A DNA stretch of 61,736 nucleotides from Jacunavirus JC01. Lineage: Duplodnaviria; Heunggongvirae; Uroviricota; Caudoviricetes; Casjensviridae. The position numbers and the translations under genes are program-made. Below, piece after piece: positions 1-61,736 of this stretch. The notes under the pieces are model-generated. The model was not told the DNA's origin and did no database searches. It saw only the letters and a program-made list of their open reading frames with translations. Each line of letters starts with the position of its first letter. The stretch's first letter is position 1. Location: positions 1 to 61,736 of the IMG/VR virus record IMGVR_UViG_2974716774_000001; one strand, given 5' to 3'.

Positions 1-12
1 GGTGCGCAGAGC
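1..12. repeat. Terminal 12-bp direct repeat GGTGCGCAGAGC, left copy (putative cohesive end)
   Basis: Bases 1-12 are identical to bases 61725-61736; a lambda-gpA-like large terminase is encoded at 10651-12723. Confidence 0.6.
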
Positions 13-20687: not shown

Positions 20688-21143
20688 ATGTCATTAGCAG
20701 ATTTTCAACCTGAAACCCGTACCGTTAAAGTCAAGAACGTCACCTTCGAAGTCCGCGGCCTTTCCTTTGCCGACATCTCCAGCCTTATCCGCACGCACAT
20801 GGATGACCTCGAAGCGGTCTTCACCATGTACGAGCGCGAGGCGCAGGGGCTTAACTTCGGCAACTTGGCGATGGCCAGACTGGCCACTGCTCTCATCTCC
20901 GATGCGCCGGGCCTCGTTGCCCACATCATCGCGCTGGCCGCCGACTCTCCGGAGTTCGTCGACAAAGCCGCACGCCTTCCCGCCTTCACGCAGCTTGATG
21001 CACTGAAGAAAATCGGAGCGATGACCTTCGAAGAGGTCGGCGGTGTAAAAAAGCTGCTGGAGATGATCGTCGAGCTGGTGGAAAACCTTCAGCCAGAAAA
21101 AAGCGAGCAGCCGAAGCGGTCGTCTCCGTCCGGGAAAAAATAA
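20688..21143 (+). CDS. Tail assembly chaperone (gpG-like)
   Basis: 151-aa ORF directly upstream of the tape measure gene with RBS AGGAG; ends at GGG AAA AAA TAA. Confidence 0.6.
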   Translation: MSLADFQPETRTVKVKNVTFEVRGLSFADISSLIRTHMDDLEAVFTMYEREAQGLNFGNLAMARLATALISDAPGLVAHIIALAADSPEFVDKAARLPAFTQLDALKKIGAMTFEEVGGVKKLLEMIVELVENLQPEKSEQPKRSSPSGKK

Positions 21144-33417: not shown

Positions 33418-34371
33418 ATGGCCACCTTTATCGACGGCTTTGAACAGTTTGACGGCGACCGCACTGCGGCGCTGATGCGCATGGCAGGCTACTCCGTCGG
33501 CGGTGTCACCCTGGCGGCGGGCAGGAAGGGCAACAGCCGCTCGGTCAGCTGCTACCGCGCCACGCTCTCCCGGGCATGGTCGATGGTCGACAATCTCCTG
33601 ACGCTGGGCTTCGCGGTCAAATTCGACCAGCGTGGCCCGCTGCTGTCCGTGGGATCCGGCGCGAACCAGCTGTACCTGTGGGTAGACCCGGAGACCGGGC
33701 TGGTTAACCTCGGCACTGGCCTGGCGGCCGGTACGCCGGGATACATCAACCCGCTGAAAAACCGCTGGTACTACTTCGAGCTGCAGCTGGACAAGTCCAC
33801 CAGCAAAGCGACGCTGTTCGTGAATGGCAAACAGGACATCTCGATACCGCTGCCATCCTTCATCACCGGCAACCTGACCGTGCTGCTCAACCCGTTTCAG
33901 CTCTTCGTGGCGCCGAAGGAGGACTACGGCACGCGGCTCTACGACGACCTGTACCTCAACGACGGCCCGCGGCTCGGCCCGATTCAGGTCACGTCGCGTT
34001 TCGCCACGGCGGATGGCAGCAAGACCGGCTGGAGTTTTGACGGTGCTGCTACGCGCTGGCAGGCGGTGTCGCCGCCGATTAACGAGCTGGACAAGTTTAT
34101 CTACACGGCGATCGACGGGAACGAGAACAGCTTCATCTCCGGCACCTCGCTGCCGGACAATAACCCTATCCGGTACCTGCAGCTGGTAACGCTCTTCAGG
34201 AAGGCCACGTCTGACCCGATGAGCCTCGACTTTAACATCGGCAGCCAGGTGAAACGTGAGTCAAACATCAGCCGCGACTGGACGTTCCGATATACGATGA
34301 TGAGCGCGTCGGGGTATGATGCCGACAGCATTAAGGCCGCCGAGTTCGGCGTCAAACTGATTCTGGGGTAA
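33418..34371 (+). CDS. Paralog 1 of a five-member tandem family (putative lectin-like tail fibre/decoration protein)
   Basis: 317 aa; N-terminal M-x-x-F-I-D-G-F-E; internal RWYYFELQL...LFVNGK; RBS GAGGAAAG. Confidence 0.55.
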   Translation: MATFIDGFEQFDGDRTAALMRMAGYSVGGVTLAAGRKGNSRSVSCYRATLSRAWSMVDNLLTLGFAVKFDQRGPLLSVGSGANQLYLWVDPETGLVNLGTGLAAGTPGYINPLKNRWYYFELQLDKSTSKATLFVNGKQDISIPLPSFITGNLTVLLNPFQLFVAPKEDYGTRLYDDLYLNDGPRLGPIQVTSRFATADGSKTGWSFDGAATRWQAVSPPINELDKFIYTAIDGNENSFISGTSLPDNNPIRYLQLVTLFRKATSDPMSLDFNIGSQVKRESNISRDWTFRYTMMSASGYDADSIKAAEFGVKLILG

Positions 34372-34375
34372 ACAC

Positions 34376-35353
34376 ATGCTGATTTTTATGGATGGCTTCG
34401 AGCAGCTGAGAGACACGGTGGCCTCCGGCTCGCCTTCCCCGCTGCTGACAGTTCTCAACGCCTCCGGCTACACCGCCTCAGGCAATATCACCGTTGACCC
34501 AGCGCGCGTTCAGACGTCGCGCTGCCTGACGCTGGTGGACACGGCGACGCTGAAGCGCACCTTCACCTCGACGCAGGGCAAGGTCGTTATCGGCTTTGCG
34601 TACAAAGGCGGCACCCGCACGGATATCACGAATATCACGAACGTCGGCGCGCTGCAGTGGGATGCGACCACGGGCAAGCTGAAGATGGCCAATGGCACCG
34701 GCACGGCCACGGTGCTGCTGGACACGTGGTATTACTACGAGATTGTGATCGACAAGGCGAACCAGCTACTGCAGGTCTTCGTGAATAACGGAAAAGACAT
34801 CGAGGTCGGGCTACCGGCCAGCGCGCAGAACCTGTCGACATTTGAGTGCCTGTGGGCTGGCGCCGCGGCCGATAACAAAGGCGTTGATGACCTGTACTTC
34901 GTCGACAGCGCCACCGGCCGCTACGTTGACCGCATGGGGCCGATAGCCATTACCGCCCGCCTGCCCACGCAGGACGTCGACAAAGAATGGTCGCCTTCCA
35001 GCGGCACCGACCACTGGGATCTCGTCAATAACATGCCGCCGGTCGACGACCAGTATGTCCAGTCAAACACCTCCGGCGCGACTGACACGTACCTCTCGAA
35101 CGTCGGTCTGCCTCAGGGCGCCGCGATCCTGGCCGTCGGCATCACGGCGCTGAATAAGAAGTCCGATATCGACGCCCGGCAGCTGGGGCTGGTCATCGGG
35201 CGCAAGGGCCAGACGCAGAAGGAAAAGGTGGACACTCAGCTCTCCACCAGCCCAAAATACAGTTACGCCGTCTTCGAGACCGCGCCGGACAACACGGCGT
35301 GGACGGATGAAAGCGTGACCTCAGTACCGTTCGGCGTCGTCGTGCGCCCATAA
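34376..35353 (+). CDS. Paralog 2 of the tandem family
   Basis: 325 aa; N-terminal MLIFMDGFEQ; TWYYYEIVID...VFVNNGK; YVQSNTSGATD motif. Confidence 0.55.
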   Translation: MLIFMDGFEQLRDTVASGSPSPLLTVLNASGYTASGNITVDPARVQTSRCLTLVDTATLKRTFTSTQGKVVIGFAYKGGTRTDITNITNVGALQWDATTGKLKMANGTGTATVLLDTWYYYEIVIDKANQLLQVFVNNGKDIEVGLPASAQNLSTFECLWAGAAADNKGVDDLYFVDSATGRYVDRMGPIAITARLPTQDVDKEWSPSSGTDHWDLVNNMPPVDDQYVQSNTSGATDTYLSNVGLPQGAAILAVGITALNKKSDIDARQLGLVIGRKGQTQKEKVDTQLSTSPKYSYAVFETAPDNTAWTDESVTSVPFGVVVRP

Positions 35354-35366
35354 CAGGAGAAACACA

Positions 35367-36392
35367 ATGTCTCTTAAATTTCAGGACGGCTTCGACCACT
35401 ACGCCGCAACCGGAGTTAAGGGCGCGACGCTTCAGCCGTATCTCACCGATAACGGCTACGATGTGCGTAACGCCTCCGACACCACGTTCGCCGTGGTTGA
35501 TGGTCGACGTGCTGGCGCGCGGGCGCTGCAGTTCACCGTGGCGCGAAACTCAACGACGAACGCGTCGCTGTCGTGGGGCTTCACCTATCAGGGCGACTAC
35601 GCCTGCTTCGGCTTTGCGATGAAGGCCAGCGGCTCCCGTATGCGCATCTGCCGCATCGAGAACGTCATCGACGTCGACTGGGATGCCACTACCGGCAAAA
35701 TCAGCGTGGCGGGCCAGCTGGGCGTTAACCCGCTCATCCTGAACGACTGGTACTACTTCGAGATTGAATGCGACTTCACCGCGAATAACGTTAAGATCTG
35801 GGCGAACAACGAACTGCAGCTGACCGTGGATATCTCGTCCGTCGCGAAGCCCGCGAAAGCGACTATCGTGTGGGGCCAGGTAGGCACCGCGCCGGATGCT
35901 GGCGTGCAGATCCTGGATGACTTCTACGCGCTCGATGCCGGTGGCACCTCCAATACCGCACGCCTGTCGCCGATTGAAGTCGTGACCCGTGCGCCGTCAG
36001 CCGACATCACGACCCAGTGGGAGATCGTGAACGCTACGGCAGGCACGCCGCACTACCAGATCGCCGGGCAGCTGGAGCCGAACAAAGCGGGCGCGCCGTA
36101 CCTGCAGTCGAACACCGCTGGCGCCACTGACCTGTTCCGCTCCAACACCGCGCTGCCGACAGACAACACGGTCTTTGCGGTCTCCGTCATCGCGTACGCT
36201 CGCAAGGGCGACGTGGACGACCGCAAACTCGGTCTGCTGATCCAGCCTGAGGGCGGCTCTGAGTCCGAGACGCAGGTGCCGCTGACGGAGGCCTTCAAGT
36301 ATTACCAGCAGACCTTCGATAAAACGCCGAGCGGCGGCGCGTGGAATAAGAACATTGTAGAGTCGCTGCAGTTCGGCATCCGCACGCGCTAA
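35367..36392 (+). CDS. Paralog 3 of the tandem family
   Basis: 341 aa; N-terminal MSLKFQDGFDHYA; DWYYFEIECD...IWANN; YLQSNTAGATD motif; RBS AGGAGAAA. Confidence 0.55.
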   Translation: MSLKFQDGFDHYAATGVKGATLQPYLTDNGYDVRNASDTTFAVVDGRRAGARALQFTVARNSTTNASLSWGFTYQGDYACFGFAMKASGSRMRICRIENVIDVDWDATTGKISVAGQLGVNPLILNDWYYFEIECDFTANNVKIWANNELQLTVDISSVAKPAKATIVWGQVGTAPDAGVQILDDFYALDAGGTSNTARLSPIEVVTRAPSADITTQWEIVNATAGTPHYQIAGQLEPNKAGAPYLQSNTAGATDLFRSNTALPTDNTVFAVSVIAYARKGDVDDRKLGLLIQPEGGSESETQVPLTEAFKYYQQTFDKTPSGGAWNKNIVESLQFGIRTR

Positions 36393-36401
36393 GGAGCCAG
36401 C

Positions 36402-37559
36402 ATGGCCATTCTTTTCGTTGAAGGCTTTACCGGCGTGCCGCGCGTCGCAAACGGCGGGTGGGCAAACACCCATCCGCTGTACGCGCTGGGCTGGACGCTG
36501 AACGCCAAATACAACGGCTCCAGCGCCGTATCTGCGTCCGATGGCAACGTGGTGGCCAGCGTAGAGGCAGACCCGACGTTCGCCACGCGCAGTCAGGTGT
36601 CGCTGCAGAAAACGTCGGCGAATGGTTCGCTGTCGCTGGTGCAGCAGATGACGCAGGCTTTCGACACCTCCGGGTATCAGAAGTACGTCATCGGCGGGAT
36701 GTTCCTGGTGAGCCAGACGGACACCTCAGCGGCAGGCGGCTACGTGGTTATTTCGGGCGCTGTGCAGTTCCCAAGCTCCCAGGGCAGCTTCCCTACGGCT
36801 GACATCCTTGCGCAGTTCTACGTGCCGAATAACGGGGCTGACGGCACCGCGTCTGCGACCATTGTCAGTCAGTCGCTCGTCACGCCGCTGCTGAAGAAGG
36901 ACAAGTGGACGCACTTCGAGGTTTTCGTCGAACAGGACACCGACCGCATTCGCGCCTACCTCGATGGCACGCTGGTGCTGGACTACACCTACACCGGCAC
37001 CTTCGGCTCGGCAACCGGCGGACTCAGCCTGACGGCGTTGCGCTCCACGGCACAGACGGGCGTCTTCACCACGAAATTCTCTAACGTCTACATGCTGGGC
37101 TGCGACGACGTTCATACTGGCCCTCTCGGCCCGGGTGCCCGCGTGCTGGAAGTGGCGCCAGCGGCTGACTTCGCCGTGACGTGGGGCCGTCCTGCCAGCT
37201 TTGCGAGCAACGCCGCGGTGCTGCAGCAGGCCTTCAACGCCGCCGCGCCGTCGTTTCTGACCACGGCCGATACCACGCCAGACCTGTACAAAGGCCCGGA
37301 CGCAGTGGCGGCTAACGCGGCTACGGTGTACGGCGTGGCCATGAAAGTGAACGCGATGACAATGGCCGAGGGCAACCACGCGATCGCGGCCGCCGCGCAG
37401 TACGGCACCAGCAGCTCCGTGGGGCCGCGCAGCTACAACCTGCAGCTGGGTACGCTCAAGCCGCTGGTGCTGGACATCTCGAAGAACCCGGCAACGGCCG
37501 AGCGCTGGACACCTTCGGAAATCACCGCGGCCGGTATCGGCATCAAGATGCTTAACTAA
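36402..37559 (+). CDS. Paralog 4 of the tandem family (more divergent)
   Basis: 385 aa; N-terminal MAILFVEGFTG; KWTHFEVFVEQD...YLDG; RBS context TAAGGAGCCAGCATGG shared with paralog 5. Confidence 0.5.
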   Translation: MAILFVEGFTGVPRVANGGWANTHPLYALGWTLNAKYNGSSAVSASDGNVVASVEADPTFATRSQVSLQKTSANGSLSLVQQMTQAFDTSGYQKYVIGGMFLVSQTDTSAAGGYVVISGAVQFPSSQGSFPTADILAQFYVPNNGADGTASATIVSQSLVTPLLKKDKWTHFEVFVEQDTDRIRAYLDGTLVLDYTYTGTFGSATGGLSLTALRSTAQTGVFTTKFSNVYMLGCDDVHTGPLGPGARVLEVAPAADFAVTWGRPASFASNAAVLQQAFNAAAPSFLTTADTTPDLYKGPDAVAANAATVYGVAMKVNAMTMAEGNHAIAAAAQYGTSSSVGPRSYNLQLGTLKPLVLDISKNPATAERWTPSEITAAGIGIKMLN

Positions 37560-37568
37560 GGAGCCAGC

Positions 37569-38645
37569 ATGGGCGTCACCCTGATGGAAAACTTTGACTG
37601 TGACGTGGGCGCGCTGGTGGAGCGGGGCTGGGTTATGCCCGCCACCACGACGAACGTCTTCACAGCCATTGAGCAGTTCACTGAGAACGGCATCACCCGA
37701 AACTGCTTCCGCCACAGCATGTCGATGAGCTATTACGGCTTCGGCGCGTTCTACCCGTTCCGCATCCCGCTGCCCGCATCGAAAGAGTTTTTCGTGTCAT
37801 TCCGGATGCGCTACCCGAACGCCTCCCGTATCAACTCGTCAACCGCATGGAGCGTCTCTACTAACAGTGGGCGTTCAGCCGCGAACCTGGTGCTGGAGGT
37901 CTACCCGGCCGATGCTTATTCCAGCGTCTACCTGAAGAACAACGGACAGGTGGCGGGGTCTCCCAGCTACCGGTTCAACCATCAGACGTGGGCGACCATT
38001 GAGATGCAGCGCAAAGCGGACGGCTCGACGAAGGTGTGGGTGGACGACATGCTGCTCTACAGCGCAAACGCAAACACCACGGCCTCGGCGGACAACTACC
38101 TGTACATGGGCGTGGTCAATGCCGGGCAGGGCAGCACGATTGATGGATATCAGATAGCCGACGTCGTTGTCATTGACCCGACCACGGCAGGCCTGCAGAA
38201 TCGACCGGGATCCAGTGAGCGCGTATTGTCGCTGGCCGCAAGTGCCGATGTGCTGGCACAATGGACGGCGATCGGCGGCGCCACCGAGCCGCACAACCAG
38301 CTGATGAAAAACTATCCGGCCACGGTGGATACGACGAAAGTGCTGCAGGGCGACACCGCAGGGCAGCGCGAGCAATACAGCCTCGCGGATTTCCCGGCAG
38401 GCTTTGGCACGCAGCTGCTGACGCTCGGCTTTGAGCAGCGCGCGAACAACCCTGGCAGCTCGCCGCACGTCTTCACTACCGAAGTGGATCTGGGTGCCGG
38501 GCCTGTCGGTGTCGCAGATAACACCGTGGCACCCGGCGCAACGTACAGCTATCGCCCGGTGTACGTGGCCTCAAAGCCCGGCGGCGGTACATGGACAGCG
38601 GCGGACATCCCGGCGCTGAAGATAGGCTTCTCCGTTAAGTCATAA
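37569..38645 (+). CDS. Paralog 5 of the tandem family (more divergent)
   Basis: 358 aa; N-terminal MGVTLMENFD; QTWATIEMQRK...VWVDD; same RBS context as paralog 4. Confidence 0.5.
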   Translation: MGVTLMENFDCDVGALVERGWVMPATTTNVFTAIEQFTENGITRNCFRHSMSMSYYGFGAFYPFRIPLPASKEFFVSFRMRYPNASRINSSTAWSVSTNSGRSAANLVLEVYPADAYSSVYLKNNGQVAGSPSYRFNHQTWATIEMQRKADGSTKVWVDDMLLYSANANTTASADNYLYMGVVNAGQGSTIDGYQIADVVVIDPTTAGLQNRPGSSERVLSLAASADVLAQWTAIGGATEPHNQLMKNYPATVDTTKVLQGDTAGQREQYSLADFPAGFGTQLLTLGFEQRANNPGSSPHVFTTEVDLGAGPVGVADNTVAPGATYSYRPVYVASKPGGGTWTAADIPALKIGFSVKS

Positions 38646-38654
38646 GGCGCATAT

Positions 38655-40763
38655 ATGGCCGAAGCTATTAAGATGGCGGGCTACCGACTGGTAAGCCTGT
38701 CCTATAACGGCAAAACGCCGGACAAGCTGGGCGCGGCCACCGCAGGTACGCTATCCATCATCTACGTTGAGGCCGCGATAAACCGCGTCGCCTCTTTTCG
38801 TCTTACCGCCCTGAGCGCAGCTACCCGATCCCCTGACAGAATTGGTGCCGTGTCTGCGGCCACCACGGCCATGATTTACGTCGAAGCGCCGGTCAACCGC
38901 ATGGCCACGTATCGCCTGGTCGGCCTGAGTGCCACGACTCGCCAGCCGGACAAGCTGGCAGTGGCCACTGCAGGTCTCGTGGCGTTCCTGATCCGCCCGC
39001 CTTTCGGCAGCGCGCAGGCCGGGCGCTTCGGCTTCATCATCGAGCAGAAAGAGGTCGGGCCTCCGGCGTACGTGAAAGAGGCACAGCTGCTCGTTACCGC
39101 CGCGCGGCAGGTGCCGCCGGTAAGCCAGGTCATCTCGTACGAGAGCGTGCGCCAGACAGTGATGCTGACGTCCATGCTCTACGGCGCGATGCCGTTCCCG
39201 CTCTCCTACACTCGCGCGAAGCAGCTGCACCAGCTCGTGCTGCAGGCGAAGCCGATCAGCACTATCTCGTACGAGTCCGTGAAGCAGGTGCGCAACCTGG
39301 CGGCGACGCAGTTCAACTACATCATTCCGGGAGACGTCTGGTCGAAGAGCAGCGCCGCCCAGACCGTGATGCTGGTCTGTCAGTCGCTCACCATTCCGTA
39401 TACGCCGACGTCCGGCGAGTACCTCAGGCAGAACCTGATGCTGGTGGCGCTGCAAAGCGCGCCAATGCCCATCCGTATTTCCCGCGTTACCGTGCGGCAG
39501 GAGAGCGTGCTGGTGGCGCTGAAGCGTCCGCAGGAGAGACTGCCACGGTCGATTACCCGCGTGCCGCTGGTGACGACGCTGGCTTCGCAGAGACGCATCG
39601 ATCCGATGCCGCGCTCCGCCGAATTTGTGGGCGCCGTGCTTTCGCAGGCGTCAGTGCCCACGGTAATGCCGGAGCCGCACGGCCCTGACCACGTAGCGCA
39701 GCTGTATTCGCTGGCGCTGGTTCCGACCGTTATGCCCGCAGTCCAGGGCGTGCAGCAGGTTAAACAGGAGCGCGTGCTGGTGTCGCAGGCCCGCCCGGCG
39801 CCGCTACCGATTTCCCGCGAGGCTGTACCTCAGGTTACGCTGCTTGCCTCGCAGGGCACGTCATACCCGGCACCGGGATCCATGTCGAGCCTGCAGGTGA
39901 AACAGGAGCGCACGCTGGCGCTGGTGCAGTCGTCCTATCCGCCGCCGACCCGCATCTCCTATACCGCCGTGCCTCAGGTGGCCATTGCGTTCATGACCCA
40001 CCCTCCAGCGTCTTACTACCCCGACCCGGAAGTGGTGTACGAGCGCTCGCGCTATGACTTCGTGTCGCAGTTCGTCGAGCTGGTGACGATGGGTCGACCG
40101 TTGGCGCTGCCGCTGTCCTATGTGCCGGTGCCGCAGCTGGCCATGCTCACCGCGCAGCACGCGGACTACCTGTCGCCGGAAGAGATGGCTCGCTCCGGTG
40201 CCTTCACCTGGCAGGTCATCGAGAACGTCGCGACCACAGCGGACTACCCTTCCGCCGACGCACCGGCCAGCCGCGTTATCGTGCCGCAGCTCATCGAGCA
40301 CGTTGCGGTGACGGCCGACTACCCTGATGCCCATCTGCCGGTCAATTACGCGATTGTGACGCAGGTCGTGGAGCATACGGCCACGGTTGAGACTTATCCC
40401 GATCCGGGCACCCTTCAGTCAGTGCAGAATGTGTGGCAGGTATCCGAGCAGCTGGCGGTCGAAACTGATTACCCGGACGCTGGTGCGCTACACTCACCTG
40501 TGATAGCTTTGCAGCTTGTTGAGCAGGTCACTTCGTCGGCTAACTACCCGGACAAAGATTTCCCGCAGTCTTTCGTCCGGCTGGCTCAGGCGACACAGCA
40601 GGTGGCCTTCAAAGCAGCTTACCCTAACAAGGACGTTCCACAGTCCTCGGCTCGGGTAAATCAGGTGCTCCAGCATGTTGCCCGGCGCGACCTGACGATG
40701 TATCAGCTACCGGTACCGCCGCGGCGCCACAGAGTGCGGGTCGTGTGCCGATTCGTGTACTGA
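38655..40763 (+). CDS. Repeat-rich protein (putative tail fibre shaft)
   Basis: 702-aa ORF with three types of internal tandem peptide repeats (N-terminal about 38-aa units, central ISYESV-type units, C-terminal about 27-aa units ending in DYPD/TYPD/NYPD). Confidence 0.55.
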   Translation: MAEAIKMAGYRLVSLSYNGKTPDKLGAATAGTLSIIYVEAAINRVASFRLTALSAATRSPDRIGAVSAATTAMIYVEAPVNRMATYRLVGLSATTRQPDKLAVATAGLVAFLIRPPFGSAQAGRFGFIIEQKEVGPPAYVKEAQLLVTAARQVPPVSQVISYESVRQTVMLTSMLYGAMPFPLSYTRAKQLHQLVLQAKPISTISYESVKQVRNLAATQFNYIIPGDVWSKSSAAQTVMLVCQSLTIPYTPTSGEYLRQNLMLVALQSAPMPIRISRVTVRQESVLVALKRPQERLPRSITRVPLVTTLASQRRIDPMPRSAEFVGAVLSQASVPTVMPEPHGPDHVAQLYSLALVPTVMPAVQGVQQVKQERVLVSQARPAPLPISREAVPQVTLLASQGTSYPAPGSMSSLQVKQERTLALVQSSYPPPTRISYTAVPQVAIAFMTHPPASYYPDPEVVYERSRYDFVSQFVELVTMGRPLALPLSYVPVPQLAMLTAQHADYLSPEEMARSGAFTWQVIENVATTADYPSADAPASRVIVPQLIEHVAVTADYPDAHLPVNYAIVTQVVEHTATVETYPDPGTLQSVQNVWQVSEQLAVETDYPDAGALHSPVIALQLVEQVTSSANYPDKDFPQSFVRLAQATQQVAFKAAYPNKDVPQSSARVNQVLQHVARRDLTMYQLPVPPRRHRVRVVCRFVY

Positions 40764-40771
40764 TATGACTA

Positions 40772-40791
40772 ACGGGCTTCGGCCCGTTTTT
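40772..40791 (+). terminator. Rho-independent terminator after the tail fibre region
   Basis: Hairpin ACGGGC-TTCG-GCCCGT followed by TTTTT. Confidence 0.6.
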
Positions 40792-40806
40792 ACTGAAGGG
40801 GTATCT

Positions 40807-41136
40807 ATGTCCAACCAAAATGCAGACGAAGGGGCAAAATCGGGCGTGAAAGTCGACCTGACAATCAACATCCCGACAATGCTGTCTCTGTTCGCGATGG
40901 TCGCGGGATCCATCACCTATGTTAACGGGCAGATCACCGCCATCAACAATCAGCAGCTCGTGACCGTCGGCGACGTGAAAGTGCTGCAGACGCAGGTAGC
41001 GGCACAGGGAGCGGCGCAGACCGCGCTCCGCGCTGACACCGCCACCCAGCTCGCCCAGTTCCGCACCGAAGTCCGGTCAGACCTACGTGACCTGAAAGAA
41101 GGTGTGGATCAACTCAACCGAAATAGTGGACGTTAA
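40807..41136 (+). CDS. Putative holin (single transmembrane segment)
   Basis: About 110 aa from the ATG at 40807 with RBS GAAGGGG; one hydrophobic helix INIPTMLSLFAMVAGSITYV; directly upstream of the lysis genes. Confidence 0.35.
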   Translation: MSNQNADEGAKSGVKVDLTINIPTMLSLFAMVAGSITYVNGQITAINNQQLVTVGDVKVLQTQVAAQGAAQTALRADTATQLAQFRTEVRSDLRDLKEGVDQLNRNSGR

Positions 41137-41138
41137 TC

Positions 41139-41894
41139 ATGCCGAAATATACCGAGTATTTTGGAAACGCCTCTCTGCCTCGTGGGATCCGGAACAACAA
41201 CCCGGGCAACATCGAATGGGGCAGCCCGTGGCAAGGTCTGGCCAAGACCATCGGGCGCAACCGGGATGACCGATTTGCGCAGTTCGTCGACCCGGCCAGT
41301 GGCATCCGCGCCATTGCCGTGACACTCATCACCTACTATGACAAGCGCAAAGCCAAAGACGGCAGCCGCATCGACAGCGTGCGCGAAGTTATCGATCGCT
41401 GGGCACCGCCGGTCGAGAACAACGTGTCCGCCTACGCGAAGCAGGTGGCCGCGGTGCTCAACGTGCGCCCGGAGGATGAAACGCTAAACCTCCACAACTA
41501 CGACACCATGCGCGGGCTGGTGGAGGGCATCATCCGCCACGAAAACGGCGACCCGAAAAAAGCTGGCGTCACTCCGTACAACAACGCAAACCAGTGGTAT
41601 CCGGACGAAGTGATCGACGAGGCTCTCCGCCGCGCCGGTCTGGTAAAGAAGGTCGCCACGGTAGGCTCCGTTCCCGCCACTAAGACGACCGCCGCTGCCG
41701 GTACCGTCGCTGCCATTGGCGTTGGCCAGCTTGCTGAAGTCAGCCAGCCGGTCATTGACGCCGTGCGCAACTCGCAGGACAACATCACCTCAGGTCAATG
41801 GACGCGCATCGCTTTCGGTGTCGTTACCATCGGCATCGGGGCGTGGCTGACGTACCTGCAGTACCGCAAATACAAAGCGGGTCAAGCCGTATGA
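41139..41894 (+). CDS. Putative endolysin / cell-wall hydrolase with C-terminal transmembrane segment
   Basis: 251-aa ORF between the holin candidate and the spanin pair; conserved-looking GIRNNNPGNIEWG segment; C-terminal hydrophobic helix IAFGVVTIGIGAWLTYLQY. Confidence 0.4.
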   Translation: MPKYTEYFGNASLPRGIRNNNPGNIEWGSPWQGLAKTIGRNRDDRFAQFVDPASGIRAIAVTLITYYDKRKAKDGSRIDSVREVIDRWAPPVENNVSAYAKQVAAVLNVRPEDETLNLHNYDTMRGLVEGIIRHENGDPKKAGVTPYNNANQWYPDEVIDEALRRAGLVKKVATVGSVPATKTTAAAGTVAAIGVGQLAEVSQPVIDAVRNSQDNITSGQWTRIAFGVVTIGIGAWLTYLQYRKYKAGQAV

Positions 41895-42178
41895 TGGCCT
41901 TATGGTCACGGATGAAGACGGGCGTCATTCTGGCGCTCGCCTTCGTCGGCATTCTGCTCAGCGTGTGGTTCGGCGGTCGGCGCAGCGGGTCGGTCAAAGA
42001 ACAGTACGAGCGGAAGAAAGACGAGCTGGCGGCCGAGAAGAAGGCTAACCAGCAGCATACCGAAACGCGTCAGGAGGTGAATGATGTCCAGGATGAAACT
42101 AACTCTCTGCCGCCTGGCGAAGCTGAGCGTCGTCTTCGCGATGGCTGGATGCGCGGCTCCGACGACGGTCGAGACTAA
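41891..42178 (+). CDS. i-spanin (Rz-like)
   Basis: Start overlaps the upstream stop (ATGA); N-terminal TM helix GVILALAFVGILLSVWF followed by a charged coiled-coil-like domain. Confidence 0.55.
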   Translation: MMALWSRMKTGVILALAFVGILLSVWFGGRRSGSVKEQYERKKDELAAEKKANQQHTETRQEVNDVQDETNSLPPGEAERRLRDGWMRGSDDGRD

Positions 42179-42341
42179 CCCGCGAGACTTCTGCCTGGTG
42201 GCCAAAGCGATCTACATCGGCGATGGGGATAAGCTGACGGACAAGACGGCGGAGCAGATTTACAGTCACGACTGCACGGGCCAGCGGCTGTGCGGGTGGG
42301 GCGGTAAGAGGGCAGCAGAGGTATGCAGCAGGAAGCGATAA
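42081..42341 (+). CDS. o-spanin (Rz1-like lipoprotein), overlapping the i-spanin gene
   Basis: Signal peptide with lipobox-like FAMAGC, Cys-containing small periplasmic domain; starts inside the i-spanin gene in another frame. Confidence 0.55.
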   Translation: MMSRMKLTLCRLAKLSVVFAMAGCAAPTTVETNPRDFCLVAKAIYIGDGDKLTDKTAEQIYSHDCTGQRLCGWGGKRAAEVCSRKR

Positions 42342-42347
42342 AAATAT

Positions 42348-42378
42348 GCCCGCTGGGCGCCTGAATCACTCAGCGGGC
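42348..42378 (-). terminator. Possible terminator in the convergent intergenic region
   Basis: Inverted repeat GCCCGCTG ... CAGCGGGC with a 15-nt loop; T-rich only on the minus strand side. Confidence 0.35.
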
Positions 42379-42433
42379 AAACATCACACCAACAAACCGT
42401 CATTCCCGTTCTGTTCGCAGTTAAGCACTTCCC

Positions 42434-42916
42434 TCAGCTGGCGTCAACACTCTCTTTCCTGAAGCACATCCAGTGGGTGTCGACACGTTTCCCTGACCGA
42501 TGGCCAAATAACGGAGCCGCATCCACGAGAGTGAGGATTTCGCGTACGCGGTGGCTGGTGTCGTTCCACTTGAAGATTAGCGTTCCACCCGGCCGGAGAA
42601 CGCGGAAGGCTTCGCTAAAACCTTTCCTCAGGTCTTCCCGCCAGGTGTCTTTGTTGAGCACGCCGTATTTGTGGCGCAGCAAGCTGCGCGGCCCAGCGCG
42701 GGATACGTGCGGTGGATCGAAAACGACCATCTCGAAAGTCTCATCGGCGAAAGGCAGCTGGCGGAAATCTGCCTGGACGTCAGGGCGAACTTCGATGGTT
42801 CGGTCGGTCATCTGAAAAGTGCCCACACGGATGTCGCAGAAAACAACGCGCGGGTCTTTCCTGTCGAACCAGAAAACTCGGCTGCCACAGCACATGTCAA
42901 GCACGGTTTTATCCAT
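42434..42916 (-). CDS. Small DNA methyltransferase (N6-adenine or N4-cytosine type)
   Basis: 160-aa ORF; DPPH motif (VVFDPPHV) and Gly-rich SAM-binding-like LDMCCGSRVF. Confidence 0.55.
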   Translation of the reverse strand: MDKTVLDMCCGSRVFWFDRKDPRVVFCDIRVGTFQMTDRTIEVRPDVQADFRQLPFADETFEMVVFDPPHVSRAGPRSLLRHKYGVLNKDTWREDLRKGFSEAFRVLRPGGTLIFKWNDTSHRVREILTLVDAAPLFGHRSGKRVDTHWMCFRKESVDAS

Positions 42917-52652: not shown

Positions 52653-53009
52653 TTATTGTCCGTACAGCCAGCCTTTGTGTTGCTGAAGCAGCTCAGTCGG
52701 GTAGTGCGTGCAGCACCAGCGCAGCAGCATGTACGCGTAGGCGCGCTGCTGGGCGCACTGCTCGTGCCCTACGGCTTTGGCCGGGGTGTAGCGGCCCTTC
52801 TCAAACACGACGTCGCCGTCGCGCTCGGCGATAACGCCTGTCCAGCTCAGGCGGATCTTGAGCCCGTGGCGGCGCTCCAGATCGTTAAACAGCGGTGCGA
52901 TGGCCACGCTTACCGGGGCCACCAGCGTGTTGATGGCCATTGCCGTTTTCGTTGGCACGGCGCCGAGCTTCCACGCCTCGTCTGACACGTTAACCTTGCT
53001 CATCTTCAT
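52653..53009 (-). CDS. Hypothetical protein
   Basis: About 118 aa from the ATG at 53009 preceded by RBS AAGGGG. Confidence 0.4.
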   Translation of the reverse strand: MKMSKVNVSDEAWKLGAVPTKTAMAINTLVAPVSVAIAPLFNDLERRHGLKIRLSWTGVIAERDGDVVFEKGRYTPAKAVGHEQCAQQRAYAYMLLRWCCTHYPTELLQQHKGWLYGQ

Positions 53010-53376
53010 CCCCTTTGGTCGGTAGTTCCACGCTGTAAAGCAGGCGGCTAAGGTCAGCCCGAGCATCCTTCACGCCGCGCACGTATTCTTTCAGGTACTG
53101 CTCGCCGTTCTTCTCGGCCTGCCCGTTGTACTGCGCCATCAGCTGCTCTTTGATGCTGGTGGACAGTGCCGTGTTCGCGCCGCCGCTGCGCACATGGCTG
53201 TCAAACACGGCATAGCGGCCCTGCAGGTAGGCGTTGATGGCCATCTGGCGGCGGAAGCGCGTGTGGTAGCGCCAGGTGTTGAACGCCATGTACACCAGCG
53301 GCGCGCAGATAAGCAGATTGCCGAACCACGCGATCGCGGTCAGCTCCGCCCGGTGCTGCAATATCCAGTCAAGCAT
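52990..53376 (-). CDS. Hypothetical membrane protein
   Basis: 128-aa ORF; N-terminal hydrophobic helix LTAIAWFGNLLICAPLVYMAF. Confidence 0.4.
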   Translation of the reverse strand: MLDWILQHRAELTAIAWFGNLLICAPLVYMAFNTWRYHTRFRRQMAINAYLQGRYAVFDSHVRSGGANTALSTSIKEQLMAQYNGQAEKNGEQYLKEYVRGVKDARADLSRLLYSVELPTKGDEDEQG

Positions 53377-60346: not shown

Positions 60347-60356
60347 GGTGCTGATT

Positions 60357-60620
60357 ATGTCAATTGCTCTTATCCTGGCGGTGTGTACGCCGCTTATTTC
60401 CGGCGGTGATGAATGCACGCATCACTATGTGAAAATGTACGACACTCCCGCGCAGTGTGTGGCTGTGATGGATCGAAACCAGCAAAAGCTTGATGACCGC
60501 TATCTGGCCTGTCAAAGCGCCGATGCTATGTGGCTCATCGACCGCACCAACGGGCGCAGCGCAGAGCAAATCATCGCTGACCTTAACGCCAGCATTCCGT
60601 ATCAGGGCGGCGCTAAATGA
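60357..60620 (+). CDS. Hypothetical secreted/lipoprotein-like protein
   Basis: About 87 aa from the ATG at 60357 with RBS GAGGTG; N-terminal signal-like MSIALILAVCTPLISGG. Confidence 0.4.
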   Translation: MSIALILAVCTPLISGGDECTHHYVKMYDTPAQCVAVMDRNQQKLDDRYLACQSADAMWLIDRTNGRSAEQIIADLNASIPYQGGAK

Positions 60621-61724: not shown

Positions 61725-61736
61725 GGTGCGCAGAGC
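61725..61736. repeat. Terminal 12-bp direct repeat GGTGCGCAGAGC, right copy (putative cohesive end)
   Basis: Exact copy of bases 1-12 at the last 12 positions of the window. Confidence 0.6.

Follow-up and report, generated by a model that had tools for sequence, protein, structure and literature searches.

The lysis cassette of Cronobacter phage JC01 encodes an endolysin in which a cell wall-degrading domain is followed by a C-terminal membrane module of about 80 residues, and our profile searches indicate that this module is portable across unrelated catalytic folds. The arrangement has been described as limited to Chi-like phages (PMC8943055); judged by sequence, it is not. We analyzed a stretch of 61,736 nucleotides (hereafter the window), which is the genome of JC01. 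The cassette occupies 40807-42341 on the + strand, downstream of the tail genes, and comprises a small gene encoding a protein with one transmembrane domain (TMD; gene 1), the endolysin gene, and the genes for an inner-membrane spanin (i-spanin) and for a spanin lipoprotein of the outer membrane (o-spanin), in that order.

The cassette and the design of its endolysin, as proposed in an initial annotation made from the sequence alone, are correct but not new. The JC01 genome has been published with these genes annotated as lysis proteins, and a C-terminal anchor has already been described for the endolysins of phages Siskin (2019), BSPM4 (M4Lys; 2020) and Enc34 (2022), and for LysAP (2022), a lysozyme of glycoside hydrolase family 24 (GH24). 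Endolysins of this class present a puzzle, in that a folded wall enzyme with a C-terminal anchor only reaches the periplasm and, in relatives, lyses the cell without a holin. Similar azide experiments have led to two contradictory published readings, one for M4Lys (PMC7143992) and the other for LysAP (PMC8879335). The portability of the module is what the present analysis adds.

Identification of the lysis cassette and its endolysin

We regard it as near certain that 40807-42341 is the late host-lysis cassette of JC01, with four translationally close-packed genes. The four open reading frames (ORFs) of the initial annotation are all present on the + strand at the coordinates given below, and its gene order agrees with the ORFs, hydropathy profiles, PHROG matches and synteny. 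In gene order, the four proteins match PHROG 7686 (E 1e-24), PHROG 873 'endolysin' (E 4e-72), PHROG 1026 (E 1e-18) and PHROG 1275 (E 6e-16), which are phage lysis families. The cassettes of Chi, Enc34, XAP3 and Salmonella phage BAU.Micro_SLP-22 (Casjensviridae, Jacunavirus; hereafter SLP-22) are syntenic with that of JC01; SLP-22 is the closest phage-collection record, at ~73-74% nucleotide identity. Because all four JC01 proteins match phage lysis families and can be aligned to the products of the syntenic genes of Chi, Enc34 and SLP-22, the assignment is far beyond chance. The endolysin gene is divided as follows.

41139-41894, + strand: endolysin ('lysis protein A'), 251 amino acids (aa), N-terminal catalytic domain and C-terminal membrane module
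41169-41651, + strand: predicted catalytic domain (aa 11-171) of the PHA02564/Enc34 type, with the RGIRNNNPGN motif, W88, Y99 and Glu135
41652-41741, + strand: basic linker (aa 172-182) and helix H1 (aa 183-201), the latter weakly hydrophobic and Ala/Gly/Thr-rich
41742-41798, + strand: amphipathic, net-acidic connector (aa 202-220) with the motif ..VIDAV..SQDNITSG, ending in S218-G219
41799-41891, + strand: C-terminal TMD (aa 221-242, including G227) and basic tail RKYKAGQAV (aa 243-251)

The 251-aa protein is 100% identical to JC01 'lysis protein A', and its strong homology to enzymes that degrade peptidoglycan supports its designation as an endolysin. Pfam and NCBIfam searches returned no family for it, and only the PDB and PHROG searches identified the domain. 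Residues 11-171 match the catalytic domain of Enc34 ORF39 (PDB 7Q47) with an E-value of 2e-73 and ~70% identity. No different function emerged from these homology searches, so the endolysin-like assignment of the initial annotation stands; its catalytic class, which had been thought not identifiable by eye, can now be named from 7Q47 and PHROG 873. By homology, it is the PHA02564/Enc34 type, an all-helical domain resembling the alpha-lobe of lysozyme. The protein has no recognisable sequence or fold match to the lysozyme-like families GH73, GH23, GH24 and GH19. It contains no cysteine.

Enc34 ORF39, from a Hafnia phage, has the same gene position and two-part architecture as the JC01 endolysin (Cernooka et al., 2022; PMC8943055). 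The two proteins share 62% identity over their full length, and the holin-position gene and overlapped spanin genes that flank ORF39 in the same four-gene cassette are homologous to their JC01 counterparts. The JC01 protein differs in having a 7-residue N-terminal extension (YTEYFGN) and a linker before H1 that is longer by 5 residues (GSVPA), and in the absence of a 5-residue KKNGV insertion. The ORF39 domain is all-helical, like the lysozyme alpha-lobe, and is muralytic in turbidity assays, in which permeabilised E. coli, P. aeruginosa and Hafnia cells were lysed (PMC8943055). Its key residues Glu131, Trp79 and Tyr95 (PMC8943055) correspond to E135, W88 and Y99 in JC01, where the predicted catalytic Glu135 is encoded by a GAA codon at 41541-41543. 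All three are invariant in alignments of 9 and of 120 sequences; the latter are the 120 closest endolysin homologues, on which the charge and hydropathy comparisons reported here are based. Gene anatomy, homology, catalytic-residue conservation, and charge and hydropathy patterns were read directly from the JC01 sequence.

The Chi endolysin, gp38, is 68% identical to that of JC01 and belongs to the gp37-gp40 cassette of Chi and Siskin (PMC6498227). The C-terminal TMD and basic tail recur in M4Lys, the endolysin of Salmonella phage BSPM4 (Bai et al., 2020; PMC7143992). Within the Chi/Siskin/BSPM4 group, functional data are available for M4Lys only, for which holin-independent, azide-insensitive and TMD-dependent lysis was described. 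A TMD-less form of M4Lys degraded purified peptidoglycan, and its specificity was reported to be that of an N-acetylglucosaminidase (PMC7143992).

The same wall-degrading domain is evidently also used by virion proteins for entry, to judge from its N-terminal position in large virion or injection proteins. It matches Gp29, a protein of 1295 aa (PDB 9vvp chain L, E 3e-17), in which the first ~115 residues correspond to the JC01 catalytic domain, and further PHROGs annotated as tail injection transglycosylase, tape measure and head protein. The name under which the domain was originally listed is 'virion protein', and some records label Chi-like endolysin homologues as 'structural' or 'virion' protein. 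From these data it could be argued that the 251-aa protein is a virion-associated wall hydrolase that acts during infection rather than in lysis. We consider this extremely improbable, as the gene lies between the holin-position gene and the spanin genes and is coupled at its stop codon to the start of the i-spanin gene, the protein carries a membrane anchor, and its homologues lyse cells from within. In a crude gene map used to look for an alternative holin or endolysin elsewhere in the window, few further ORFs encoded a TMD; the four that were scanned (52653-53066, 52990-53376, 60348-60620 and 20688-21143) matched no lysis PHROG family. The Enc34 authors likewise found no other endolysin candidate in the Enc34 genome (PMC8943055).

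Endolysins of the same type (~54% identical and with the same C-terminal module) are also common on ~110-kb ParA-bearing elements of Cronobacter, Salmonella, Klebsiella, E. coli and Xenorhabdus, which resemble SSU5/pHCM2-like phage-plasmids. An example is Cronobacter contig JADKOM010000019.1 (L007; proteins P0093-P0119), where the TMD of the small upstream protein is at its C-terminus.

Anatomy and conservation of the C-terminal membrane module

Hydropathy peaks on the Kyte-Doolittle scale (KD) were found at aa 183-201 and 221-242 of the endolysin and none at the N-terminus, in keeping with the C-terminal hydrophobic helix and missing N-terminal signal-anchor of the initial annotation. The topology described there as atypical is so among endolysins in general, although it had already been published for this phage group. 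The first 45 residues contain no hydrophobic segment by KD, and thus no N-terminal signal-arrest-release (SAR) domain. Like the SAR endolysins that operate with pinholins (P1 Lyz; R21/S21 of phage 21), the JC01 enzyme has a weakly hydrophobic, Gly/Ala-rich anchor that would tether it to the membrane. It differs from them in that the anchor is C-terminal, and co-translational Sec export therefore cannot work as it does for SAR endolysins.

H1 has a KD value of 1.13 and consists of 63% Gly/Ala/Ser/Thr. The connector has a hydrophobic moment of 0.53. The C-terminal TMD (41799-41864) is present in 120 of 120 homologues; with a KD of 1.38, that of JC01 is the least hydrophobic among them (range 1.38-2.52, median 1.91), and Gly/Ala/Ser/Thr make up 42% of it. 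Conserved positions are spread over the whole module and comprise A187, G194 and Q197 in H1, A208, S218 and G219 in the connector (A208 and G219 invariant, S218 98% conserved), and G227 in the TMD. Judged from the alignment, this conservation exceeds what a passive anchor would need.

Deletion experiments in relatives point in the same direction. Full-length M4Lys lyses E. coli by itself and the TMD-less form does not; loss of the last 13 aa abolishes lysis, and the TMD alone is bacteriostatic (PMC7143992). Full-length Enc34 ORF39 is toxic, whereas the form lacking the C-terminus is not (PMC8943055). Together with the conserved positions and the fusions to five other folds described below, the M4Lys and Enc34 deletions suggest by analogy that the JC01 module is functional and more than an anchor. 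Muralytic activity, lysis by the endolysin alone and dependence on the C-terminal TMD have each been demonstrated in relatives of JC01.

Portability of the module

We compared a profile built from just the module with 1.84 billion representative proteins and obtained 53 matches at a cut-off of E<=1e-3. Beyond PHA02564 enzymes, these include endolysin-sized proteins whose N-terminal regions belong to five other Pfam families, namely Phage_lysozyme/GH24, Glyco_hydro_19, Peptidase_M15_4, Peptidase_M15_3 and Hydrolase_2 (SleB-like). All of the module-bearing proteins have the same C-terminal layout and carry the motif V(I/V)DAV..Q(D/E)xL(T/S)SG(D/Q)W before the TMD. Examples of such fusions are P0179, P0181, P0184, P0187, P0188, P0200 and P0201, and the annotated endolysin of Brucella phage BiPBO1 (22107-22787) also carries the module. 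Because five other catalytic families share the layout and the motif, the module is portable across unrelated catalytic folds. When the module was compared with Pfam, nothing was found at E<=10, and the only PHROG match was the endolysin family itself, so that identity with a known holin is unsupported.

LysAP of Acidovorax phage AP1 shares several of these features (PMC8879335). Like the JC01 endolysin, it has a C-terminal TMD and is preceded by a gene for a small single-TMD protein; it lyses E. coli on its own, and the TMD is needed for this (PMC8879335). Profile comparison of its C-terminal region with the JC01 module gave an hhalign probability of 74% (E 2.8e-5). LysAP differs in being a GH24 lysozyme rather than a PHA02564 enzyme and in having no adjacent annotated spanin genes, and its authors conclude that export is Sec-dependent.

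In some bacterial and metagenomic contigs, the module was observed as a separate ORF of 61-79 aa (L011-L013, 2543-3186; L010, 417-1076), either starting 4 nt ahead of a Peptidase_M15_4 stop codon or lying behind an M15 gene that is truncated. One of these, the 61-aa module ORF P0182, occurs on 6 contigs; the three loci given here derive from three different sequencing runs. In L010-L013, an M15 peptidase gene directly precedes the short match or is frameshifted relative to it, and the match in L009 lies on a contig of 758 bp. These stand-alone ORFs look like split or truncated fusions, which could represent a split gene, a fixed frameshift or the remnant of a decaying prophage.

Topology and route to the murein

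Among the 120 homologues, the mean net charge is +2.9 over the 20 residues before H1, -1.3 in the segment between the helices and +2.8 in the tail; the JC01 linker before H1 has a net charge of +5. Under the positive-inside rule, a hairpin whose two ends are cytoplasmic is therefore favoured, with the enzyme on the cytoplasmic face. [quoted passage not shown]

The interpretation that we tentatively favour, which is plausible but by no means secure, is that of a cytoplasmic enzyme tethered by a hairpin, whose own module must breach the membrane. The endolysin would be made without an N-terminal export signal, with Glu135 as the catalytic acid and W88 and Y99 placing the substrate. Its C-terminal module (basic linker, weak Ala/Gly helix, acidic loop, TMD and basic tail) would tether it to the inner membrane by forming a helical hairpin that inserts post-translationally, as M13 procoat does. 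M13 procoat has a layout of hydrophobic segment, acidic loop, TMD and basic tail, and its insertion is independent of Sec and dependent on YidC and the membrane potential. Procoat-like insertion would fit the weak effect of azide on lysis. With increasing amounts of endolysin, breaching or depolarisation of the membrane would depend on the module itself and give the enzyme access to the murein. Gene 1 might set or sharpen the timing of lysis, which is a conjecture because its BSPM4 homologue is nearly without phenotype, and the two spanins, one in the inner membrane (i-spanin) and the other a lipoprotein of the outer membrane (o-spanin), would then remove the outer membrane. We infer the topology, the insertion route, and the membrane-breaching roles of the module and gene 1.

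Several points weigh against this interpretation. H1 is so weakly hydrophobic that it may not span the membrane, and AlphaFold2 (AF2) modelled it as a short, low-confidence helix, with a second helix at aa 221-248. Phobius and Phyre2 predict a single-pass, N-out/C-in topology for M4Lys (PMC7143992), and the AP1 authors take similar azide data as a sign of Sec-dependent export of a 'C-terminal SAR' endolysin (PMC8879335). The BSPM4 homologue of gene 1 has almost no phenotype (PMC7143992), and the access of a tethered cytoplasmic enzyme to the murein is unexplained.

Some of these observations could instead be accounted for by export of the catalytic domain, which would be held inactive by the C-terminal TMD in an N-out/C-in orientation until gene 1, acting as a pinholin, depolarises the membrane and releases the enzyme, as in P1 Lyz and R21 with the anchor at the other end. 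This is the LysAP authors' own model, with HolAP as the pinholin, and they report a two-hybrid interaction between HolAP and LysAP and a delay of lysis by azide (PMC8879335). Lysis upon overexpression without a holin is typical of SAR endolysins (discussed in PMC8943055), the N-out/C-in prediction for M4Lys is as this model would have it, and the low hydrophobicity and Gly/Ala/Ser/Thr content of the JC01 TMD, next to an H1 that may not span the membrane, are also consistent with it. We nevertheless regard the model as rather unlikely. The TMD emerges from the ribosome only when translation ends, and therefore ~220 mostly folded residues would have to cross the membrane post-translationally without an N-terminal signal. 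According to the Enc34 authors, no known pathway exports an N-terminal domain via a C-terminal signal (PMC8943055). The basic linker before H1 disfavours translocation, and azide delayed M4Lys lysis but did not prevent it (PMC7143992).

A more speculative possibility is that the ~80-residue module is a self-sufficient membrane-targeting and membrane-breaching device carried on at least six unrelated folds. It would then constitute a third general endolysin route, in which the upstream protein is a modulator rather than a hole-former.

Gene 1 and the question of a holin

40807-41136, + strand: gene 1 ('lysis protein B'), 109 aa, one TMD and a charged helical C-terminal domain; putative holin or timing partner

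In NCBI, the gene 1 product has a counterpart of 100% identity, 'putative lysis protein B [Cronobacter phage JC01]'. The longest ORF opens at 40765, and the ATG there lies after the stop codon of the upstream 702-aa gene, at the 5' edge of a terminator-like hairpin. A Shine-Dalgarno sequence, GAAGGGG (40795-40801), ends 5 nt before the ATG at 40807, and a start at 40807 agrees with the N-termini of homologues. Given the Shine-Dalgarno spacing, the homologue N-termini and the position of the 40765 ATG at the hairpin, 40807 is the likely start. The protein has a single hydrophobic segment (aa 18-38, KD 1.62 in a 19-aa window), 10 basic and 10 acidic residues, and its gene is directly upstream of the endolysin gene.

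The single-TMD holin candidate of the initial annotation therefore holds as far as its one TMD and holin position are concerned. No holin family was found for it, as Pfam gave no match above threshold and NCBIfam none at all, and its BSPM4 homologue was negative: ORF_37 caused no lysis, had a minimal effect on growth and did not release TMD-less M4Lys (PMC7143992). Anatomy and position are thus those of a holin, whereas homology to a recognised holin family is missing. The holin label is only positional, and we regard gene 1 as a putative timing partner.

A canonical system, in which gene 1 would be a large-hole holin that decides both timing and access and the TMD of the endolysin would merely concentrate the enzyme at the membrane, appears improbable. 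Its small size, one TMD, charged C-terminus and holin position would suit such a role, a recognised holin (PF16083) lies upstream of the same endolysin type in relatives L004/L005, and HolAP of phage AP1 arrests growth and boosts lysis by LysAP (PMC8879335). The lack of a Pfam or NCBIfam holin match argues against it, and the BSPM4 experiments do so more directly, since ORF_37 alone did little, TMD-less M4Lys was not released and lysis was if anything delayed (PMC7143992). Moreover, the endolysin alone is lytic or toxic in three systems (Enc34, M4Lys and LysAP).

Gene 1 can be aligned to Chi gp37, Enc34 ORF38 and SLP-22 gp38, with only ~30% identity to the Chi and Enc34 versions. It is restricted to Chi-like phages, with 35 database matches compared with 2631 for the endolysin, and its slot is filled differently elsewhere. 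The PF16083 holin of the prophage relative (L004/L005) is accompanied by a lipoprotein, the SSU5/pHCM2-like 110-kb plasmids (L007) have a 107-aa protein that is unrelated and has its TMD at the C-terminus, and relative L008 has an 85-aa protein without a TMD. Proteins with a single TMD and a helical domain are also encoded in the vicinity of GH24 and GH19 endolysins that bear the module, and HolAP is built in the same way. Homology of gene 1 to these proteins was unsupported by hhalign (probability 7.4% for L014 and 0.6% for L016), as was homology to HolAP (0.5%), which it resembles in architecture.

The holin-position proteins of Chi, Enc34 and SLP-22 are called 'Rz-like spanin' in RefSeq and PHROG, the label also borne by PHROG 7686, and their cassettes thus appear to have three spanins (loci compared: window 40807-41136; L002 2645-2983; L003 3820-4164). 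We rejected the idea that gene 1 is a duplicated i-spanin, as profile-profile comparison with the cassette i-spanin gave an hhalign probability of 0.7%. The 'Rz-like spanin' label on the Chi-type holin-position protein looks like a propagated annotation error.

Spanins

41891-42178, + strand: i-spanin, 95 aa, N-terminal TMD and charged domain predicted to be periplasmic
42081-42341, + strand: o-spanin precursor, 86 aa, lipoprotein signal, with an AGGAGG Shine-Dalgarno sequence upstream

Sequence features indicate that the cassette encodes a predicted two-component spanin pair of the overlapped type. The ATG of the i-spanin gene overlaps the endolysin stop codon (ATGA), as it does in Chi and Enc34, and i-spanin homologues begin at the same residue; the start is most likely 41891. 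The protein has a TMD at aa 11-29 (KD 2.25) and 16 basic and 16 acidic residues, and can be aligned to Chi gp39 and Enc34 ORF40.

The o-spanin gene begins inside the i-spanin gene in a different frame, as the initial annotation had noted: the offset between the two starts is 190 nt (+1 frame), 98 nt are common to both genes, and the o-spanin gene continues for 163 nt after the i-spanin stop. The lipobox, FAMAG|C24, has Ala at +2 and hence no inner-membrane retention residue at that position; it was read from the sequence as MMSRMKLTLCRLAKLSVVFAMAG|CA, and its Cys is invariant in homologues. The o-spanin aligns with Chi gp40, Enc34 ORF41 and the SLP-22 homologue, and homologues conserve the pattern FC.VA.AIYIG..D.L.D.TA.QI..HD..G.RLCGW.

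The spanins of Chi and Enc34 have been grouped as one family with overlapped architecture (Kongari et al., 2018). As in the overlapped spanins of the P2 LysB/LysC type, an inner-membrane protein with an N-terminal TMD is paired with an outer-membrane lipoprotein, whose gene opens in the +1 frame within the first one and terminates downstream of it. By sequence, the JC01 spanins are nevertheless unrelated to lambda Rz/Rz1 and to P2 LysB/LysC, with a short i-spanin and an o-spanin that is not rich in proline. Compared with Chi, both JC01 spanins have C-terminal extensions; SLP-22 has the o-spanin extension and an intact i-spanin ORF. The JC01 paper names lysis B, lysis A and Rz1 only, and the SLP-22 record lists a 40-aa 'hypothetical protein' in the wrong frame despite the intact i-spanin ORF (L001, 4094-4468). 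The i-spanin gene thus appears to have been missed or mis-annotated in public records.

Genomic context

The sequence GGTGCGCAGAGC occurs at both ends of the window (1-12 and 61725-61736) and is the 12-nt cohesive-end (cos) sequence reported for Chi, Utah and Siskin (PMC6498227). Because this Chi-type cos sequence is present at both ends, the window is the complete linear genome of JC01, a Chi-like siphophage (Casjensviridae), with cos written twice. The JC01 paper gives a length of 61,736 bp, the same cos sequence and 58.9% G+C. Two hairpins delimit the cassette.

40771-40791, + strand: terminator-like hairpin AACGGGC-UUCG-GCCCGUU, with the stem entering a U5 run; putative terminator
42347-42379, strand unassigned (T-run on the - strand side): GC-rich hairpin of 11 bp; putative terminator

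The first hairpin follows the stop codon of the 702-aa gene, which lies in the tail-fibre region, and precedes the gene 1 ribosome-binding site. Its folding free energy (dG) is -15.5 kcal/mol (z -2.7), a value equalled by 2 of 200 shuffled sequences, and it was not flagged by a consensus scanner. The second hairpin separates the end of the cassette from a convergent leftward operon that includes a DNA methyltransferase gene (42434-42916, - strand); its dG is -20.9 kcal/mol on the + strand (z -4.8) and -23.4 kcal/mol on the - strand (z -3.6), equalled by none of 200 shuffled sequences. A promoter scan of 40300-42800 found no sigma-70-like site.

The 702-aa protein encoded next to the cassette (38655-40763, + strand) belongs to PHROG 7226, of 'unknown function'. 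Degenerate internal repeats can be seen in it by eye (for example ..YRL.SLS.. and ..(D/T)YPD..), and Tandem Repeats Finder found nothing in the DNA of the gene. Directly upstream, at 33418-38645 (+ strand) in the tail-fibre region, are five tandem paralogous genes whose 317-385-aa products share 19-28% pairwise identity, an N-terminal F-x-D/E-G-F motif and a few invariant residues. The last of the five matches PHROG 2448, also of 'unknown function'.

Conclusion

The presence of one C-terminal module on unrelated catalytic domains suggests that the mechanism is a general one and not peculiar to Chi-like phages. If the module is indeed a self-sufficient device for reaching and breaching the membrane, its route would stand alongside holin release and N-terminal SAR export. 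Self-exporting lysins already serve as lysis actuators, and they are candidates for enzybiotic design.

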